IMG/VR virus record: IMGVR_UViG_2534681831_000033
Coordinates: 1-11,611 of that record
Length of the DNA stretch: 11,611 nucleotides
DNA from: a virus
Taxonomy: Duplodnaviria; Heunggongvirae; Uroviricota; Caudoviricetes
Reading direction: 5' to 3' (one strand)
Below, one piece after another: positions 1 through 10,018 of the stretch. A program made the translations under genes and the position numbers. Position 1 is the stretch's first letter, and each line of letters begins with the position of its first letter. The notes under the pieces were generated by a model that searched no databases, was not told where the DNA came from, and saw nothing but the letters and a program-made list of their open reading frames with translations.

Positions 1-284
1 GAGCCGCACTCGGAGAAGTTGCGTCCATTTTCAGGGGAATGGGGTAAAAACCATCAGTGATATGCAGTATCAATCGATAAGATCCATTTAATTGACGGCG
101 GTGCACTCATGGCACGCAGGCAGTGTTGAATAAACATCCGTTTTTGGGTGTTTTTTTAATCTTTTTGGGATTTAAATTCCTATCGATCAAGAAATGAAAA
201 AAGGCCACGCAGTTGCGCAGCCTGATAAACCCTGGTTAAAATCCACACGATAACAACACAACAATATCAGTATCTCATGCTATT

Positions 285-310
285 GCCCGAACCCATTCGG
301 GCATTTTTTA
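285..310 (+). terminator. Rho-independent terminator-like hairpin: 7-bp stem GCCCGAA / TTCGGGC, 4-nt loop, followed by ATTTTTTA
   Basis: Perfect inverted repeat at 285-291 / 296-302 followed directly by a T-run on the + strand. Confidence 0.5.
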
Positions 311-315
311 CCCAT

Positions 316-339
316 AAAAAAGCCCCTCCGGAGAGGGGC
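316..339 (-). terminator. Rho-independent terminator-like hairpin for leftward transcripts: stem GCCCCTC / GAGGGGC, loop CGGA, then T6 on the - strand
   Basis: Perfect 7-bp inverted repeat at 322-328 / 333-339; the A6 run at 316-321 is a U-tract on the - strand. Sits downstream of all - strand genes in the window. Confidence 0.5.
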
Positions 340-1088: not shown

Positions 1089-1117
1089 AACATACGCGAT
1101 TTAATTGACTTTTGCAA
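1089..1117 (-). promoter_or_regulatory. Sigma70-like promoter (-35 TTGCAA, 17-bp spacer, -10 TATGTT) overlapping the stop codon of the upstream 229-aa gene; a pR'-like position
   Basis: Hexamers read on the - strand: TTGCAA at 1117..1112 and TATGTT at 1094..1089. Followed at 1012-1040 by A7-GC-rich-T8 ending at the next start codon. Confidence 0.3.
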
Positions 1118-1790
1118 TATCTCGTCGTGAAAAGGTCGCTTTTTGTTGCGCTCTTATTTTCACGGAGCAAATCAAGGATTCTCTATCGAGGCGCTTAAAA
1201 ATATCGCACATCTCACGCCAGTAGTTCGCATAATTATGGCTCCAGTTATCAGGCTTAACTCCACACAGTCTGGCAAGCTCCTGTCTCTGGTAGACCTCAC
1301 ACCCGGTAACCCATCCTCTGACATCCTGTGCCGCCAGCCAGATCAACTTCTTCACACGCTCCAGCGTTTTCACTGCAATTTTTCTGGTACCAGACTGAGT
1401 TTTAAATTCATTCCACACCCACTGCGTTATCGCGATCTGATGCTCCCAGCAAATGTTTCCGCCATAACACCACAACAACCACGCCTTCTGATGTTCTTCC
1501 AGTTCCAGAAGGGTACGCCGCCACGATGATGTTGCAAACTCAACAGGACTGACCAGGGCAATTGATGAGCCTTTCGCCAGTGATTGTTTACCCGGGATTG
1601 GGGGATTATCCCGCGTGATCATTTTTCCGGTTACCTCATCGCGGTAACGAATTTTTTTGCGTCTGTAACGCCCTGTATCGAACAGGGCATTTTCCTGCCA
1701 GGCTTCCAGTTGACCTTTTGTCGCCCCACTGAGATCCGCAGTGGCAATCATGAGTTGCTCACGAACAAACTGTAAATACTGGTTATTCAT
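1101..1790 (-). CDS. Phage early/regulatory protein, 229 aa; possibly a phage-82-type Q antiterminator-family protein (assignment uncertain)
   Basis: Long ORF in the track (1101..1796, GTG at 1796). First ATG at 1790 (MNNQYLQF...) is preceded by GAGGTGGGG. Trp-rich, no Walker motifs. Position after the replication genes and before a promoter-like element fits a Q-like role. Confidence 0.5.
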   Translation of the reverse strand: MNNQYLQFVREQLMIATADLSGATKGQLEAWQENALFDTGRYRRKKIRYRDEVTGKMITRDNPPIPGKQSLAKGSSIALVSPVEFATSSWRRTLLELEEHQKAWLLWCYGGNICWEHQIAITQWVWNEFKTQSGTRKIAVKTLERVKKLIWLAAQDVRGWVTGCEVYQRQELARLCGVKPDNWSHNYANYWREMCDIFKRLDRESLICSVKIRAQQKATFSRRDIAKVN

Positions 1791-1874
1791 GCACACCCCA
1801 CCTCTGTAATTTTTATCTCCAGCCGTCCACCAGATACTGGCTTGCCACGTACAATATTGATTTCATCAAACTGC

Positions 1875-2123
1875 TCAAGAGAGTTTTTTGCGGGCATTTT
1901 GCCAGTCCTTTCGTGCCTGTTCAGACGGGAATAACCCGTAGCCGGAGTTGTATACATAACCACTGGCAACCAGCTCTCTGGCAAGAATGCTCATCAGATA
2001 TCTTGTCGCACCTGTTTTAGCTTCCAACTGTCGTAATGTCTCGCGACCGCTCTGGCGCACAAGTTCGACCACCTGCTCTTTAATTTTTTTCCCGCTCTTC
2101 CTGTGTAAAAACTTTTGCCACAA
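1875..2123 (-). CDS. Hypothetical 82-aa protein, possibly a small helix-turn-helix protein
   Basis: ORF track entry with a TTG start at 2123, preceded by a strong AAGGAGG. Sequence has a helical HTH-like segment TLRQLEAKTGATRYLMSILARELV. Confidence 0.4.
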   Translation of the reverse strand: MWQKFLHRKSGKKIKEQVVELVRQSGRETLRQLEAKTGATRYLMSILARELVASGYVYNSGYGLFPSEQARKDWQNARKKLS

Positions 2124-2161
2124 GTCCTCCTTAAAATTACCTCATGACCTGAAATCAACAC

Positions 2162-3127
2162 TTATCCCCTGAAACCAGGCGGAATTTCTGTATCCGGTTC
2201 AGAAATATGATTCACACAACGCTGTACAGGTGAACGTCCCAAGCGGATGACCAGTTCGTCCCATTTTTCGCGGAGTTTTGACGGGCTCATGATGTTTTTT
2301 ACCCAGAATGGATCTCGCTGTACCCGACCAAACATTTCGCAAATTTGTCTGTGGCTTCTGCCATCCAGCATCCGCATTGTGCGCACGTCATTGGCCCAGG
2401 CTGTCCAGTTAGGCTCTTTTGGTCGCATGATCTCTCCATCGTCGCTGGCAGCCTGTTCGTAAAGGTTCACGATCCGCCCCCAAATCCACTGCGCACACGC
2501 CAAATCCTCCCTGCTACCCCACTGGCGTTTTTTCGCACTAAACACAACCGCGTCGGGGTTCCGGATTAAAAAATCCTGTTCAGCGGTCTGCGGGTCCGGT
2601 TGCGAAGCTTCCGGACGAAAAGTGTTTTTATTCTCTGTAGTAATCTCTGTTGTATTCTCTGTAAGATCATCAGGCCATTTTGACCCGATGACATTGGGTC
2701 GTTTTGAACCAATGGAGCGTTTCATTTTGACCTCTTCCATCGTGTCATTTTGACCTGATGGAGCGGCGCATTTTGAACCGATGGATTCGTTCAATTTGCC
2801 ACCATCTAAAAGCTCGTTCCCATAGTTGATCGTGTAGAAATTGGTCATATCGCGCTTTGATTTATTGAGCTTTTCACAACGCAAAAGCCCCAGCGTTTTC
2901 AGACTTGCAAACGCGCGCTTTAACGTTGACTCTGACCAGAATGGGAACTGTTCCAGCCATTGTTCCGTTGTGTTGTAAATCCAGCGAACACCATCACATT
3001 CCATGCCGGAATTGGTATCTCTCAACCAGTAATGCAACTGCTGCAACACAATGGCTTCATTTAAGCCAATCTTCATCGCAAGCTGTGTGTTTATAACCAG
3101 TGGGCGTTCAGCAAAAAGAAGGCTCAT
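2162..3127 (-). CDS. Phage replication initiator (lambda O-like replisome organizer) with an N-terminal DNA-binding domain, an iteron-encoded linker and a C-terminal domain
   Basis: ORF 2162..3181 (TTG at 3181). The first ATG is at 3127 (MSLLFAERPLVINTQLAMKIGLNEAIVLQQLHYWL...). Repeated SIGSK peptide motifs are encoded by DNA iterons at 2676-2806, as in lambda O. Alternative start ATG at 3076. Confidence 0.75.
   Translation of the reverse strand: MSLLFAERPLVINTQLAMKIGLNEAIVLQQLHYWLRDTNSGMECDGVRWIYNTTEQWLEQFPFWSESTLKRAFASLKTLGLLRCEKLNKSKRDMTNFYTINYGNELLDGGKLNESIGSKCAAPSGQNDTMEEVKMKRSIGSKRPNVIGSKWPDDLTENTTEITTENKNTFRPEASQPDPQTAEQDFLIRNPDAVVFSAKKRQWGSREDLACAQWIWGRIVNLYEQAASDDGEIMRPKEPNWTAWANDVRTMRMLDGRSHRQICEMFGRVQRDPFWVKNIMSPSKLREKWDELVIRLGRSPVQRCVNHISEPDTEIPPGFRG
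2676..2806. repeat. Six direct iterons (consensus CATTTTGA(A/C)C-n-GATGG, about 23-bp period) within the initiator gene; putative prophage origin of replication
   Basis: Repeat units start at 2676, 2701, 2723, 2746, 2769 and 2792. Flanked at 2620-2665 by an AT-rich segment with three TCTCTGT(A/T) repeats. Confidence 0.7.
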
Positions 3128-3397
3128 AATTCCATCCAGCTTTTTGTTGGTATTGCTGTCGATACGCAAGTTTGAAAGCAATTGCTTTTTCTATAAGTTC
3201 GTCAGTTTCACGATCCACTACGGCAGGATCAGCAAAAAGCAGTCCGGACTCCACCACATCGCCATATTCTTTGTTTAACCCGGCGATCATGTACGTGATG
3301 CTTTTTCCGTCACTAATTTCACGATACAACCTGAAATCATTAATCCGGATAGCCTCCATAATTGCAGGCACTAGCGCCGTGAACTTTTCACGCTTAT
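3108..3397 (-). pseudogene. C-terminal fragment of a YdaT-family (cII-position) gene separated from its N-terminus by the IS insertion
   Basis: After removing the IS and one TAT copy, the - strand frame from 4942 continues in frame through 3397 to the stop at 3108, giving ...KIFERWKAIDTRD|KREKFTALVPAIMEAIRINDF... (about 173 aa). Confidence 0.6.
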
Positions 3398-3451
3398 TGA
3401 ACCGCCCCGGAAATCCTGGAGACTAAACTCCCTGAGAAAGAGGTAAACAGG

Positions 3452-3778
3452 ATGACTAAAAATACTCGTTTTTCCCCCGAAGTCCGTCAGCGGGCGATTC
3501 GTATGGTTCTGGAAAGTCAGGATGAATATGACTCACAGTGGGCGGCAATTTGTTCCATTGCCCCAAAGATTGGCTGTACGCCGGAGACTCTGCGTGTCTG
3601 GGTTCGCCAGCATGAGCGGGATACCGGGGGCGGTGATGGTGGGCTCACCAGCGCTGAACGTCAGCGTCTGAAAGAGCTGGAACGTGAAAATCGTGAACTG
3701 CGCCGCAGTAACGATATCCTTCGCCAGGCTTCCGCTTATTTTGCGAAGGCGGAGTTCGACCGCCTCTGGAAAAAATGA
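3452..3778 (+). CDS. IS3-family transposase OrfA (HTH DNA-binding subunit)
   Basis: 108-aa [26 protein letters not shown]... ending at the A6 run 3770-3775 where orfB begins in the -1 frame. Confidence 0.85.
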
Positions 3779-4665
3779 TGCCACTGCTGGATAAGCTGCG
3801 TGAGCAGTACGGGGTCGGACCGGTATGCAGCGAACTGCATATTGCCCCGTCAACGTATTACCATTGTCAGCAACAGCGACATCATCCGGATAAACGCAGT
3901 GCCCGTGCGCAGCACGACGACTGGCTGAAGAGAGAGATACAGCGCGTATACGATGAAAATCATCAGGTGTACGGTGTGCGTAAAGTCTGGCGTCAGTTGT
4001 TACGGGAAGGAATCAGGGTGGCCAGATGTACAGTGGCACGTCTCATGGCGGTTATGGGACTTGCCGGTGTTCTCCGGGGTAAAAAGGTCCGTACGACCAT
4101 CAGCCGGAAAGCCGTTGCCGCAGGCGACCGCGTAAACCGTCAGTTCGTGGCAGAACGACCTGACCAGCTGTGGGTGGCTGATTTTACTTACGTCAGCACA
4201 TGGCAGGGCTTCGTCTATGTGGCGTTTATCATTGATGTGTTTGCCGGATACATCGTGGGGTGGCGGGTCTCATCGTCTATGGAAACGACATTCGTGCTGG
4301 ATGCGCTGGAGCAGGCGTTGTGGGCCCGTCGTCCGTCTGGCACCATCCATCACAGCGATAAAGGCTCTCAGTATGTGTCACTGGCCTATACGGAGCGACT
4401 AAAAGAAGCCGGATTACTGGCATCAACAGGGAGTACAGGCGACTCGTATGACAACGCGATGGCTGAGAGCATCAATGGTCTTTACAAAGCGGAGGTAATA
4501 CACCGTAAGAGCTGGAAAAACCGTGCAGAAGTGGAACTGGCCACACTAACGTGGGTGGACTGGTATAACAATCGACGATTGCTGGGAAGGCTGGGCCATA
4601 CTCCTCCGGCAGAAGCAGAAAAAGCTTATTATGCTTCCATCGGAAACGATGATCTGGCAGCCTGA
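3775..4665 (+). CDS. IS3-family transposase OrfB (DDE catalytic domain), normally expressed as an OrfAB fusion by -1 frameshifting
   Basis: 296-aa ORF with an rve-type DDE region (WVADFTYV...HSDKGSQY...DNAMAES). Overlaps orfA in the -1 frame. Confidence 0.85.
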
Positions 4666-4707
4666 GTTCACAGATAAAACACTCTCCAGGAAACCCGGGG
4701 CGGTTCA

Positions 4708-4942
4708 TATCCCTAGTGTCGATAGCCTTCCAGCGTTCGAATATCTTCACTCGATTAACGCCAAGCGCTCGCTGATCAACCGCGCCACCTTCATCTGTGA
4801 CACGCTGAACATCGATGTTCGGGCGCTCTTTCAAAGCCCAGAATGATTCAGTGATTAATATCGTCGCCTGCTCCTGTGTCATTCCTGGTCGACATATCCA
4901 GGCATCCAGAGCCTCACGAGCCTGTTCAGGAGTGATTTTCAT
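4708..4942 (-). pseudogene. N-terminal fragment of the IS-disrupted YdaT-family gene
   Basis: ATG at 4942 (MKITPEQAREALDAWICRPG...). The track ORF 4472..4942 reads through into the IS, so residues after about 78 are IS-derived. Confidence 0.6.
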
Positions 4943-5153
4943 TGTTCAACCGCCCCGCCCGCTTCGTCTTACGATATTCGTCATAAACCTTGGGATCATA
5001 CAGAAGCTCGCCGCCAGATGCCTCCTGTAGACGCATCGCGCGACCTTCAGGAACCAGCTCTTGCCATTGAGAAACAGCAGATGGGTCAACGCCAGCAGCT
5101 TTCGCTACTTTGGCTTTCGTACCGTAAAAATTAATTACGTCTGATTTAAACAT
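4926..5153 (-). CDS. Cro-like small regulator of the DicC/YdaS family
   Basis: Track ORF 4926..5180. The second ATG at 5153 (MFKSDVINFYG...) is preceded by GGAGGTGCG and gives 75 aa. Divergent from the repressor gene. C-terminus PEGRAMRLQEASGGEL...YRKTKRAGRLNNENHS. Confidence 0.75.
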   Translation of the reverse strand: MFKSDVINFYGTKAKVAKAAGVDPSAVSQWQELVPEGRAMRLQEASGGELLYDPKVYDEYRKTKRAGRLNNENHS

Positions 5154-5230
5154 CGCACCTCCAATATTGAGTTTTCTCAAAGCTAATCACTCAAGGAATC
5201 TCAAGTCAAGGGTTATTAAGATATCTAAAT
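5154..5230. promoter_or_regulatory. Divergent promoter/operator region between the Cro-like and repressor genes
   Basis: Inverted repeat TTGAG-TTTT-CTCAA at 5167-5180. Direct CTCAAG / TCAAGG repeats at 5190-5211. A TTGACT hexamer on the - strand. Confidence 0.5.
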
Positions 5231-5638
5231 ATGAACGAGAAAACTTTAGGTCAACGCATTAGAGAAAGACGTAAGCAGGTAGGCTTAAGTCAAAACGGTT
5301 TAAGCAAAGCTGCTGGCGTATCTGGCTCATCAATTTCATTATGGGAAAGTGACCATACAGCCCCGCGTGGGCAAAATTTGCATCGCCTCGCCGAGGTATT
5401 GCAATGTTCACCAACCTGGATACTGTTTGGCGACGAGGACAAAACACCAGCTCCCCCTGTTTCACTCGATAGTGCCTTAGACTTATCGGAAGATGAGTTA
5501 GAGATGCTGCGTTTGTATCGCGCACTTCCTAAATCAGAGCAACAAGCACAACTCAGCGAACTCCGCGCCCGCGTTGAGAATTTTAATCGCCTGTTCACCG
5601 AGCTATTAGAGGCTCGCAAACGCAACAAGCATCAATAA
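5231..5638 (+). CDS. DicA-family HTH (XRE-type) prophage repressor, 135 aa
   Basis: N-terminal HTH (LSQNGLSKAAGVSGSSISLWE). C-terminal LQCSPTWILFGDEDK...ALPKSEQQAQLSELRARVENFNRLF resembles DicA of the K-12 Qin prophage from memory. Confidence 0.85.
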   Translation: MNEKTLGQRIRERRKQVGLSQNGLSKAAGVSGSSISLWESDHTAPRGQNLHRLAEVLQCSPTWILFGDEDKTPAPPVSLDSALDLSEDELEMLRLYRALPKSEQQAQLSELRARVENFNRLFTELLEARKRNKHQ

Positions 5639-5702
5639 TCATCCCTTCACAAAATTTTAAAGCCTTACATTTCAATGTATTGGCTTTATCTTGCGCCAAT
5701 AC

Positions 5703-5754
5703 TTGAGTTTTCTCATCAAAAAACCTTGACGAAAAATAATGAGAAAACTAAATT
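5703..5754 (+). promoter_or_regulatory. Putative repressor-controlled promoter for the downstream operon: operator-like 13-mer plus -35 TTGACG, 17-bp spacer, -10 TAAATT
   Basis: TTGAGTTTTCTCA at 5703-5715 is identical to the 13-mer at 5167-5179. TTGACG at 5726-5731 and TAAATT at 5749-5754. Confidence 0.5.
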
Positions 5755-5830
5755 ACCTCCATCAACACACCGCACGGTGTTCTCAGCAAACAGTTCCGCC
5801 ACCCCGGCGTTAAGGGGAAATGAGGTCAGC

Positions 5831-5983
5831 ATGGATACTATCGATCTTGGCAACAGCGAATCTCTGGTATGTGGCGTGTTCCCCAACCAGGACGGTACGT
5901 TCACCGCGATGACATATACCAAAAGCAAAACGTTTAAAACCGAATCTGGCGCGCGTTGCTGGTTAGCCAGAAACACTGACTGA
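5831..5983 (+). CDS. Small 50-aa protein, ydfA-like (first gene of the dicB-type operon)
   Basis: ATG at 5831 preceded by GAGG (MDTIDLGNSESLVCGVFPNQDGTF...). The track ORF 5675..5983 has a longer, unlikely N-terminus. Confidence 0.65.
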   Translation: MDTIDLGNSESLVCGVFPNQDGTFTAMTYTKSKTFKTESGARCWLARNTD

Positions 5984-5994
5984 TGAGGCTGACG

Positions 5995-6360
5995 ATGGAA
6001 TTTAAAGATTTACCGTCTGATGTACAGAAAACAGCAGCTCATACATTGCATTCTGTGCTGCGAGAAATCGGGAAAGATATTGCAAGCGAGCCAGCAAAAG
6101 ATCTGGCCCGGAAAATCAAGACCGCTTTCGTTGAGCTTTATAATGTTGGCACTGACTCTGAAACTGTCGAGACCAAGACCGTAAGTTCACCAATATTCTC
6201 ACTTGAGCCAGGCGTATTAGCAGGTGAAATGTGCACCGAGATTTCCAGCGAACTGCTTCCGGTAATACGAGAAGCAATTTGCCGTCGCGGTTTGGATGGA
6301 AGTTACGATCATGACGTCCTGCAAGTTCTCAGGACAATGGTGACTTCACTGGGGATTTGA
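5995..6360 (+). CDS. Hypothetical 121-aa protein
   Basis: ATG at 5995 preceded by GAGG (MEFKDLPSDVQK...). The ATG at 5983 overlaps the upstream stop but lacks a ribosome-binding site. Occupies the K-12 ydfB/ydfC position; no recognisable domain. Confidence 0.55.
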   Translation: MEFKDLPSDVQKTAAHTLHSVLREIGKDIASEPAKDLARKIKTAFVELYNVGTDSETVETKTVSSPIFSLEPGVLAGEMCTEISSELLPVIREAICRRGLDGSYDHDVLQVLRTMVTSLGI

Positions 6361-6529
6361 TCCCTGCGTCCTCTAACCTTTTGATATAGCGGTCCTCCAA
6401 GAAGCGGTAAATTTTGTCGAAATCATCTTTCCCCTCTGGTTTATTCAGAGGATTACAGGACCCGTAAGTAGCGGCATACATTTCAACCGTTTTATCAAAA
6501 ATATAAGAGACAAATTCTTCTTTAGTCAT
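6329..6529 (-). CDS. Hypothetical 66-aa acidic protein encoded antisense to the dicB-type operon
   Basis: ATG at 6529 preceded by AAGAAGGAA (MTKEEFVSYIFDKTVEMYAATYG...). AT-rich codon usage. 3' end overlaps the 121-aa gene by 32 bp, convergently. Confidence 0.5.
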   Translation of the reverse strand: MTKEEFVSYIFDKTVEMYAATYGSCNPLNKPEGKDDFDKIYRFLEDRYIKRLEDAGIKSPVKSPLS

Positions 6530-6804: not shown

Positions 6805-6862
6805 TTTCTGGTGACGTTTGGCGGTATCAGTTTTACTCCGTGACTGCTCTGCCGCCGTTTTT
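6805..6862 (+). ncRNA. dicF: DicF small RNA (ftsZ-targeting sRNA of Qin-type prophages), including its intrinsic terminator
   Basis: TTTCTGGTGACGTTTGGCGGTATCAGTTTTACTCCGTGACTGCTCUGCCGCC followed by a T-run matches my memory of the 53-nt DicF. Lies between the ydfA-like genes and dicB, as in K-12. Confidence 0.8.
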
Positions 6863-7501: not shown

Positions 7502-9484
7502 ATGAGTAAAGTCTTTATTTGCGCCGCTATTCCTGACGAACTGGCAACAAGGGAAGAAGGCGCTGTGGCTGTAGCCACAGCCATTGAAGCTGGCGACGAA
7601 CGCCGTGCTCGAGCAAAATTTCACTGGCAGTTCCTGGAACATTATCCGGCTGCTCAGGACTGCGCTTATAAATTTATTGTCTGCGAGGATAAACCTGGCA
7701 TACCCCGCCCTGCCCTCGATTCATGGGATGCTGAATATATGCAGGAAAACCGCTGGGATGAGGAATCCGCTTCCTTTATTCCGGTCGAACCAGAATCCGA
7801 TCCGATGAACGTCAATTTTGACAAGCTGTCCCTTGAAGTACAGAACGCGGTCCTGGTTAAGTTCGGTACATGTGAAAACATCACCGTTGATATGGCGATT
7901 GACGCGCAGGAATTACTGCAGGAAGACGTTGCTACCTTTGACGGGCATATCGTTGAAGCACTGATGAAAACGCCTGAAATTAACGCTATGTATCCGGAAC
8001 GCAAACTGTTCGCTATCGGATGGGTTAAACACAAATGTAATCCGGGTGCCAAATGGCCCGAAATTCAGGCTGAATTACGTAACTGGAAAAAACGGCAGGA
8101 CGCAGAGCGCAAAGAGACTGGAAAATACACGTCTGTTGTTGATCTCGCCAGCGCCAGAGTCAATCAACAGCACACTGAAAACTCAGCAGGAAAAATCAAC
8201 CCAGTCACTGCCGCCATTTGTCGCGAATACAAGCAGACATGGAAAACGCTGGATGAAGAACTGGCCTACGCTCTCTGGCCTGGTGATGTGGATGCCGGAA
8301 ACATTGACGGCAGCATCCATCGCTGGGCAAAAAATGAAGTTATCGACAACGACCGCGAAGACTGGAAGCGTATCTCGGCATCAATGCGCAAACAGCCTGA
8401 TGCCCTTCGCTACGACCGCCAGACTATTTTTGGCCTTGTCCGTGAACGTCCGATCGACATTCACAAAGACCCTGTGGCACTGAACAAATACATTACTGAA
8501 TACCTGACTACAAAGGGCGTGTTTGAGAATGAAGAAACAGACCTGGGCACTGTTGATGTTCTCCAGTCATCAGAAACACAAACTGATGCAGTGGAAACTG
8601 AGGTATCTGATATCCCAAAAAATGAAACCGCGCCGGAAGCTGAACCATCTGTAGAGCGTGAGGGGCCGTTCTATTTCCTCTTCGCAGATAAGGACGGAGA
8701 AAAATACGGTCGCGCAAACAAACTTTCTGGTCTGGATAAGGCACTGGCTGCTGGCGCCACTGAAATCACAAAAGAAGAATATTTTGCCCGAAAAAATGGC
8801 ACATACACGGGCTTACCGCAAAATGTAGATACCGCTGAAGATTCAGAACAACCAGAGCCGATAAAAGTTACCGCTGACGAAGTAAACAAAATTATGCAGG
8901 CAGCCAATATCAGCCAGCCTGACGCCGATAAGTTGCTTGCTGCATCACGTGGTGAATTTGTTGAAGGGATTAGTGACCCGAATGATCCGAAATGGGTAAA
9001 GGGGATTGAAACCCGCGATTCTGTAAACCAGAACCAGCAAGAATCGGAACAGAACGACCAGAAAGCGGAACAAAACAGCCCAAATACGCAACAAAACGAG
9101 CCAGAAACGAAACAACCTGAGCCAGTAGCGCAACAGGAACCGGAAAAAGTCTGCACCGCCTGCGGTCAGACCGGCGGCGGCAACTGCCCTGATTGTGGCG
9201 CGGTGATGGGCGACGCAACATATCAAGAAACATTCGATGAAGAATATCAGGTTGAAGTTCAGGAAGATGATCCGGAGGAAATGGAAGGCGCTGAACATCC
9301 ACACAAGGAGAACACTGGCGGCAATCAGCATCACAATAGCGATAATGAAACTGGCGAGACGGCAGATCACTCAATTAAGGTGAACGGTCATCAAGAAATC
9401 ACATCCACCAGCAGGACGTGTGACCATCTAATGATCGACCTTGAAACCATGGGAAAAATCCTGATGCCCCGATCATCTCAATAG
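7502..9484 (+). CDS. Large acidic protein (660 aa) in the ydfE/RecE-N-terminal-like position, with a C-x2-C-x7-C-x2-C zinc-ribbon motif; its C-terminus carries the Exo I motif (MIDLETMG) of a DEDDh exonuclease domain and then terminates after a frame change
   Basis: ATG at 7502 preceded by GAGG. Long ORF with acidic and Q/N-rich low-complexity segments. The last 25 residues begin a DnaQ-like exonuclease domain that continues in the -1 frame in ORF 9517..9972. Confidence 0.7.
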   Translation: MSKVFICAAIPDELATREEGAVAVATAIEAGDERRARAKFHWQFLEHYPAAQDCAYKFIVCEDKPGIPRPALDSWDAEYMQENRWDEESASFIPVEPESDPMNVNFDKLSLEVQNAVLVKFGTCENITVDMAIDAQELLQEDVATFDGHIVEALMKTPEINAMYPERKLFAIGWVKHKCNPGAKWPEIQAELRNWKKRQDAERKETGKYTSVVDLASARVNQQHTENSAGKINPVTAAICREYKQTWKTLDEELAYALWPGDVDAGNIDGSIHRWAKNEVIDNDREDWKRISASMRKQPDALRYDRQTIFGLVRERPIDIHKDPVALNKYITEYLTTKGVFENEETDLGTVDVLQSSETQTDAVETEVSDIPKNETAPEAEPSVEREGPFYFLFADKDGEKYGRANKLSGLDKALAAGATEITKEEYFARKNGTYTGLPQNVDTAEDSEQPEPIKVTADEVNKIMQAANISQPDADKLLAASRGEFVEGISDPNDPKWVKGIETRDSVNQNQQESEQNDQKAEQNSPNTQQNEPETKQPEPVAQQEPEKVCTACGQTGGGNCPDCGAVMGDATYQETFDEEYQVEVQEDDPEEMEGAEHPHKENTGGNQHHNSDNETGETADHSIKVNGHQEITSTSRTCDHLMIDLETMGKILMPRSSQ

Positions 9485-9516
9485 GTGCAATATTTTTCGA
9501 TCCGCAAACCGGAGAT

Positions 9517-9972
9517 ATGGGACCGGAATTTAGTAAGACTATCGATCTGGAAACTGCTGGCGGAGTCATTGATCGGAACACCATTAAATGGTGGCTTAAG
9601 CAATCACGCGAAGCGCAATCTGCCATTATGACCGATGAAATCCCGTTAGATGATGCACTGTTACAATTGCGGGAATTTATCGACGAAAACTCCGGTGAAT
9701 TTTTTGTTCAGGTTTGGGGAAATGGAGCCAACTTCGACAACACGATTTTGCGCCGTTCATACGAACGGCAGGGGATCCCCTGCCCGTGGCGTTACTACAA
9801 CGATCGCGATGTACGCACAATCGTTGAGCTGGGGAAAGCCATAGACTTCGATGCCAGAACGGCTATTCCATTCGAAGGTGAGCGCCATAATGCACTTGAT
9901 GACGCCCGTTACCAGGCAAAATACGTTTCAGTTATCTGGCAAAAACTGATCCCGAGTCAGGCTGATTCTTAA
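9517..9972 (+). CDS. DEDDh (DnaQ-like) 3'-5' exonuclease domain fragment with Exo II and Exo III motifs; out-of-frame continuation of the preceding gene
   Basis: Motifs WGNGANFDNTIL and HNALDDARY. The -1 frame is open from 9455 (KNPDAPIISIGAIFFDPQTGD-MGPEF...), joining to ...MIDLETMG. GGAGAT precedes the ATG at 9517. Confidence 0.55.
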   Translation: MGPEFSKTIDLETAGGVIDRNTIKWWLKQSREAQSAIMTDEIPLDDALLQLREFIDENSGEFFVQVWGNGANFDNTILRRSYERQGIPCPWRYYNDRDVRTIVELGKAIDFDARTAIPFEGERHNALDDARYQAKYVSVIWQKLIPSQADS

Positions 9973-9983
9973 TGTTCAACTGT

Positions 9984-10018
9984 CGCCGGTTGTGACTGGT
10001 ATTCTGCAACCGGCGCTC
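9984..10018 (+). promoter_or_regulatory. Perfect 9-bp inverted repeat (CGCCGGTTG / CAACCGGCG) with a 17-nt loop between the exonuclease gene and xis
   Basis: Seen directly in the sequence. No following U-tract, so more likely a protein-binding site or RNA structure than an intrinsic terminator. Confidence 0.3.

Follow-up and report, generated by a model that had tools for sequence, protein, structure and literature searches.

The question raised by this locus is why the gene for an exonuclease is written in two reading frames, and whether the split is an error of the sequence, a genuine mutation or a programmed -1 ribosomal frameshift. The window, which is the whole stretch of 11,611 nucleotides that was analysed, spans the right-hand end of a Qin-like cryptic prophage that has decayed, and it adjoins rspB. 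Its gene order is Q antiterminator, IS1203, cro/cI-like regulators of the dicC/dicA type, DUF1391, DicF RNA, dicB, ydfD, exonuclease, xis, and int, with the exonuclease gene flanked by ydfD and xis-int. The features of the split gene, as read in the window, are as follows.

7502 to 9972, + strand: the whole exonuclease gene, 823 aa after one A is restored, in two frames in the window
7502 to 9484, + strand: 0-frame ORF of 660 aa, with YdfE_N, YdfE_C, a RecE-like centre, and Exo I alone
9437 to 9448, + strand: Exo I motif D-L-E-T, codons GAC CTT GAA ACC
9451 to 9457, + strand: heptamer G_GGA_AAA in the 0 frame, codons of (M)-G-K
9454 to 9458, no strand assigned: A5 run, site of the one-base loss, A6 in the finished genome
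9482 to 9484, + strand: TAG stop codon, read only owing to the missing A
9457 to 9972, + strand: -1-frame DEDDh continuation, reading NPDAPIISIGAIFF..., with Exo II and Exo III

The 660-aa ORF terminates nine codons past the Exo I motif, and its C-terminus is MIDLETMGKILMPRSSQ (given also as CDHLMIDLETMGKILMPRSSQ), followed by TAG at 9482-9484. Around the junction, the -1 frame has the sequence GKNPDAPIISIGAIFFDPQTG, and it stays open from there to TAA at 9970-9972. Both Exo II (GANFD, 9724-9738) and Exo III (HNALDD, 9886-9903) are in this -1 frame, and in the window as written the frame change separates them from Exo I. The frame switches at ATG GGA AAA ATC, and the heptamer G_GGA_AAA, which satisfies the X_XXY_YYZ pattern in the 0 frame, is present at this very point. 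The first-pass annotation had described the early end of the ORF, the remaining motifs in the -1 frame, the heptamer, and the 0-frame stop, and the sequence confirms each of them. It had also proposed that one extra A restores a single protein of about 810 aa. The single protein stands and the size does not: the protein has 823 aa, whether one A is added or the ribosome slips by -1 in the heptamer, and every residue is that of WP_000048302.1 of related genomes.

The window corresponds to bases 509-12119 of the contig AIGG01000032.1 in the draft assembly GCA_000249815.2. GCF_000249815 is E. coli DEC8B of serotype O111:H8 (PMC7693793), a human isolate obtained in Idaho in 1986 (PMC2211750, Table 1). 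The draft comes from the DEC collection project, for which PMC7693793 cites Hazen et al. 2012. A finished genome, NZ_CP077473.1 (assembly GCF_049570215.1), is described as 'O111:H8 strain 8B' from Homo sapiens, USA: Idaho. It is the top match to the window and the sole one to cover it from end to end among the 25 best-ranked of 5426 complete E. coli genomes, and the remaining best-ranked matches start at window position 188, 875, or 1875. From the name, serotype, host, state, and this unique structural match, we infer that strain 8B is the same strain as DEC8B. Over 19,992 bases, the draft and the finished genome differ by five one-base indels and by no substitution, and four of the five indels are homopolymer under-calls in the draft. 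The five differences, by position in the draft contig and with the draft reading first, are listed below.

Draft 171: GG versus GGG
Draft 517: extra C
Draft 553: A5 versus A6
Draft 823: A6 versus A7
Draft 9961, window 9454: A5 versus A6, the exonuclease site

The exonuclease indel is about 9.4 kb inside the contig, while the other four are within its first 823 bases, at the edge of an IS91 repeat. Six A residues at the junction had been named beforehand as evidence against frameshifting, and six are found in NZ_CP077473.1, together with one intact CDS of 823 aa. The single CDS 'exonuclease' (WP_000048302.1) is annotated in both NC_013364 and NZ_CP077473. In an exact look-up in a gene-position collection, the 660-aa product was recorded in one contig only, AIGG01000032.1 itself.

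The A6 run at window position 315 was considered as a second, independent proof of error and was rejected; the 80-mer of its A6 form is exact in 508 records, apparently from paralogous prophages. In the orthologous locus of strain 8B, the run at this position is A7.

The alleles of the exonuclease junction in other genomes were surveyed with a 701-base query (9300-10000), which matched 4084 records. Among these, the best matches have a length of 702 bases and are annotated with one 'exonuclease' CDS. The 81-mer of the A6 form has exact matches in 2875 records of complete E. coli genomes. Of the 3755 records that match the 80-mer of the A5 form, two do so exactly, and in each of them the gene is annotated as a 'frameshifted' pseudogene. 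ET791, one of the pair, is an error-rich assembly; in comparison with strain 8B, at least five further A/T runs are contracted within 5 kb, and the neighbouring xis and int are frameshifted as well. In the other, RM12275-C1, a divergent paralogue carries the A5 run and is in addition interrupted by an IS3 element. Among phage homologues (tblastn, 1291 records), the alignment spans the junction as one piece in every match listed. The alignment of homologues, which had been suggested as a check on the frame, thus returns single-frame genes both in the 2875 A6 records and in the listed phage matches.

The A6 run of the finished genome, from apparently the same strain, and the single-frame homologues together support a homopolymer error and do not support a programmed frameshift, both of which had been offered as options by the first-pass annotation. 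The split very likely reflects a one-base homopolymer error made in the draft. Under-calling of a single A in the A6 run would make the 823-aa gene read as a 660-aa ORF and a -1-frame remainder, the missing A being the reason that TAG at 9482-9484 is reached. The gene would most likely be intact in the organism and would be translated conventionally, without recoding. The heptamer provides the Gly-Lys codons of a Met-Gly-Lys-Asn segment that directly follows the Exo I motif, and it looks 'slippery' because a frame break that comes from a run-length error can map only to the run. Homopolymer-length errors in draft and long-read bacterial assemblies, which give rise to spurious 'frameshifted' genes, are of the same kind as the exonuclease site, namely a single A-run contraction that does not recur in the finished genome. 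Moreover, the accompanying differences here are one-base indels without substitutions, and several sites of the unrelated assembly ET791 show the pattern too. No observation on the exonuclease site departs from it. We infer that the difference between draft and finished genome arose in the reads or the assembly, and not through mutation of a single stock.

The main alternative is a genuine deletion, which would have removed one base of the A6 run very recently, in the DEC8B culture behind the draft, and created a fresh pseudogene. Such a deletion is unlikely. Although homopolymers are mutational hot spots, the run is A6 in NZ_CP077473.1, apparently the same strain, and all five differences between the two sequences being one-base indels, with no substitution among them, is the signature of errors. 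An inactivating mutation would be unsurprising in a prophage that is already decaying, as seen in the finished genome from the IS1203 insertion and the fragments of DUF977, YdaT, and YdfX, and ydfE is likewise a pseudogene in K-12. RM12275-C1 provides a precedent with the A5 run in its IS3-cut paralogue, but the allele that encodes the A5 product is known from one contig. The distance of the exonuclease indel from the error-rich end of the contig also speaks for a deletion. If it had occurred, the gene product would be 660 aa long and possess Exo I alone, and the remainder would be untranslated or catalytically dead.

If G_GGA_AAA were a programmed -1 frameshift site, the same gene would give both a nuclease-less protein of 660 aa and a fusion of 823 aa. 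This is scarcely credible, and it is effectively refuted because the homologues are single-frame; the two-frame arrangement is absent from the 2875 exact A6 alleles and from the listed phage homologues, which align as single pieces. The programmed -1 sites of E. coli, such as those of dnaX and of IS3-family elements including IS1203, have an A-rich X_XXY_YYZ heptamer and a nearby stop, and the exonuclease site is similar in both respects. Its heptamer is in the 0 frame, the 0-frame stop is eight codons after it, and the -1 product would be equal to the intact protein. However, G_GGA_AAA is weak evidence for frameshifting because the 660-aa ORF contains eight such in-frame heptamers (about 2.7 are expected from base composition) and because the intact A6 alleles have the same heptamer in the identical frame. 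The seven further heptamers of the ORF are in frame without effect, and the + strand of the window has 85 X_XXY_YYZ heptamers when any frame is counted. At the junction position, the divergent homologues that stand alone (190-199 aa) have GGG AAA AAT or GGT ACT AAC, and they conserve neither the heptamer nor the A-run. In addition, AAA in the A site is a weaker shifter than AAG in E. coli frameshifting.

The surroundings of the heptamer also argue against programmed frameshifting. The 103 nt downstream (9458-9560) show no stimulatory fold; their folding energy is -18.1 kcal/mol, whereas shuffled versions average -22.9 kcal/mol (z +1.49), and 188 of the 200 shuffles equal or exceed the native sequence in stability. 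No Shine-Dalgarno-like element (GGAGG/AGGAG) is present in the 30 nt upstream, TGACCATCTAATGATCGACCTTGAAACCATG, and Rfam at gathering thresholds has no match at the exonuclease junction. The frameshift site of IS1203 serves as an internal control in the same window. The orfA of IS1203 (3452-3778) overlaps orfB (3775-4665) at an A6 run at 3770-3775, and the site is annotated as 'programmed frameshift' in relatives. Here Rfam detects the ALIL frameshift pseudoknot at 3733-3849 with 121.5 bits, the sole frameshift pseudoknot of the window, and the site folds better than its shuffles (z -1.95). In IS1203, the A6 run is just before the orfA stop and the ALIL pseudoknot is beside it; in contrast, the exonuclease site is without a stimulatory structure and without a conserved split.

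The intact A6 allele reads GGA AAA AAT CCT GA, and its -1-frame TGA is two codons beyond the A-run, which resembles the arrangement in dnaX. On this analysis, a low-level -1 slip could yield a nuclease-less protein of about 654 aa beside the 823-aa enzyme. Such a product is highly improbable; the site has neither a stimulatory structure nor a Shine-Dalgarno-like element, and the run is not conserved in the divergent homologues.

That the nuclease domain might be switched on and off at the A-run, either through phase variation of a contingency tract or through transcriptional slippage, is barely conceivable: the change is one of homopolymer length and A5 recurs in two other records, but these are two of the 3755 that match and at least one of them belongs to an assembly rich in homopolymer errors, the divergent homologues do not conserve the run, and its length of 5-6 is below the 8-9 or more, approximately, that is usual for phase-variable tracts and RNA-polymerase slippage.

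With the split read as a homopolymer error, the protein to be considered is the repaired one of 823 aa. Its YdfE_N and YdfE_C regions, which are also part of the 660-aa ORF, are covered by the precomputed Pfam assignments PF27430 and PF27432. Residues 642-813 match Pfam PF16473 with an E-value of 4e-67 and a score of 225.8 bits, where the curated threshold is 27, and the match comprises profile positions 2-177 of 177 (176/177). On the other hand, the downstream fragment alone matches profile positions 33-177 only. The motifs are DLET at 646-649, GANFD at 742-746, and HNALDD at 796-801, the last being Exo III of the H-x4-D type. The Rv2179c-like and T4 DexA-like DEDDh exonucleases of PF16473 have DLET, GANFD, and H-x4-D in common with the protein, and the exonuclease domain has sequence similarity (E 5e-8) to the solved 227-aa exodeoxyribonuclease 8kel. 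As judged by sequence, the C-terminal domain is a predicted DEDDh 3'-5' exonuclease of the Rv2179c-like, T4 DexA-like kind. In other phages (PhiR55_1 and PhiR46_1) the domain makes up a stand-alone protein of 190-199 aa, whereas it is here fused to an N-terminal region of 640 aa.

The central part of the repaired protein is related to RecE. In BLASTP, residues 262-625 align with RecE 278-591 at 39% identity (E 5e-63), and the match is near-identical over approximately residues 470-620, including a Cys-rich CxxC...CxxC segment. Together with the PF16473 match, this alignment upholds the earlier view of the gene as a fusion between a RecE-like/ydfE-like region and a DnaQ-type exonuclease. In contrast, the C-terminal residues 592-866 of RecE gave no significant alignment with the repaired protein in BLASTP. 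RecE of the Rac prophage shares the central region by homology but carries a 5'-3' exonuclease, where the present protein would have a DEDDh 3'-5' domain instead. In Rac, recE is followed by recT; no recT was found next to the exonuclease gene, and the genes that follow it are xis and int. In the catalytic sense, the protein is predicted not to be a member of the RecE family.

The exonuclease gene and recE have an equal position on their prophage maps, near the xis-int end and downstream of a cell-division inhibitor, which is kilR in Rac and dicB in Qin. The positional orthologue in K-12 is ydfE of Qin, in the order dicA-ydfA-dicF-dicB-ydfD-ydfE-(xis)-int-rspB. K-12 ydfE is a pseudogene cut short by IS2, while the exonuclease gene here is of full length but for one A and is the intact-type counterpart of that pseudogene. 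A literature search for ydfE as an exonuclease found no paper, and one for the finished genome CP077473 gave irrelevant hits only.

The exonuclease gene is already known and is annotated in thousands of genomes. The locus gives a caution for the reading of draft assemblies, in that a homopolymer under-call is enough to place a frame break on a heptamer that looks slippery. The difference in nuclease module from RecE is not new as annotation and is of modest biological interest: the exonuclease gene and RecE have a common central region and unrelated nuclease modules, which points to module swapping at an equal prophage position.

IS1203, an IS3-family element inserted in the window, carries a genuine programmed -1 frameshift, and its site serves as an internal positive control, an example of what a real frameshift site looks like. 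An A6 run (window 3770-3775) lies immediately 5' of the orfA stop, and a pseudoknot is matched in the same region.

IS1203 in the window:
3452-4665, IS1203 insertion (orfA 3452-3778, orfB 3775-4665)
3733-3849, ALIL pseudoknot (Rfam match, 121.5 bits)

The genome of strain ET791 (NZ_CP100906.1), labelled 'complete' in RefSeq, has many homopolymer contractions across exo, xis and int (1089-5193 of L003, a stretch of that record), which lead to three neighbouring 'frameshifted' pseudogene calls. The ET791 pseudogene annotations are therefore unreliable. Within the draft, four of the five indels relative to the finished genome fall in the first 823 bases of the contig, at the edge of an IS91-family repeat, and therefore the initial few hundred bases of the window are to be treated as low quality. 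The clustered indels lie in window 1-320 (draft contig 509-830) and at draft contig 171. An A6/A7 difference between draft and finished genome is located at window 315, the boundary of AgvB and STnc100. Both run lengths are found among paralogous prophages, and the 80-mer with A6 is exact in 508 records.

Prophage small RNAs in the window (Rfam, gathering level):
248-309, + strand, AgvB (anti-GcvB)
310-499, - strand, STnc100
6806-6857, + strand, DicF

The prophage in the window is decayed. Its fragments in the finished-genome annotation include a frameshifted, partial DUF977 and a partial YdfX, together with two partial hypothetical proteins and one ORF with an internal stop. Among the precomputed Pfam hits for the draft there is also one to YdaT_toxin, which falls on the junction with IS1203.

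Decayed regions (finished-genome annotation; L004 is a stretch of NZ_CP077473.1):
window about 1100-3400, L004 2288-3899
window about 4700-4950, L004 5210-5443

The exonuclease gene product (window 7502-9972) has a central region in common with RecE of the Rac prophage (recE, 3787-6387 of the comparison stretch L006), the protein being near-identical over ~150 residues including the CxxC...CxxC segment. In contrast, the C-terminal nuclease of RecE is a 5'-3' domain, whereas that of the exonuclease gene is an unrelated DEDDh 3'-5' module, which elsewhere in phages occurs as a stand-alone protein of 190-199 aa. Nuclease modules appear to have been exchanged here at a shared location on the prophage map.
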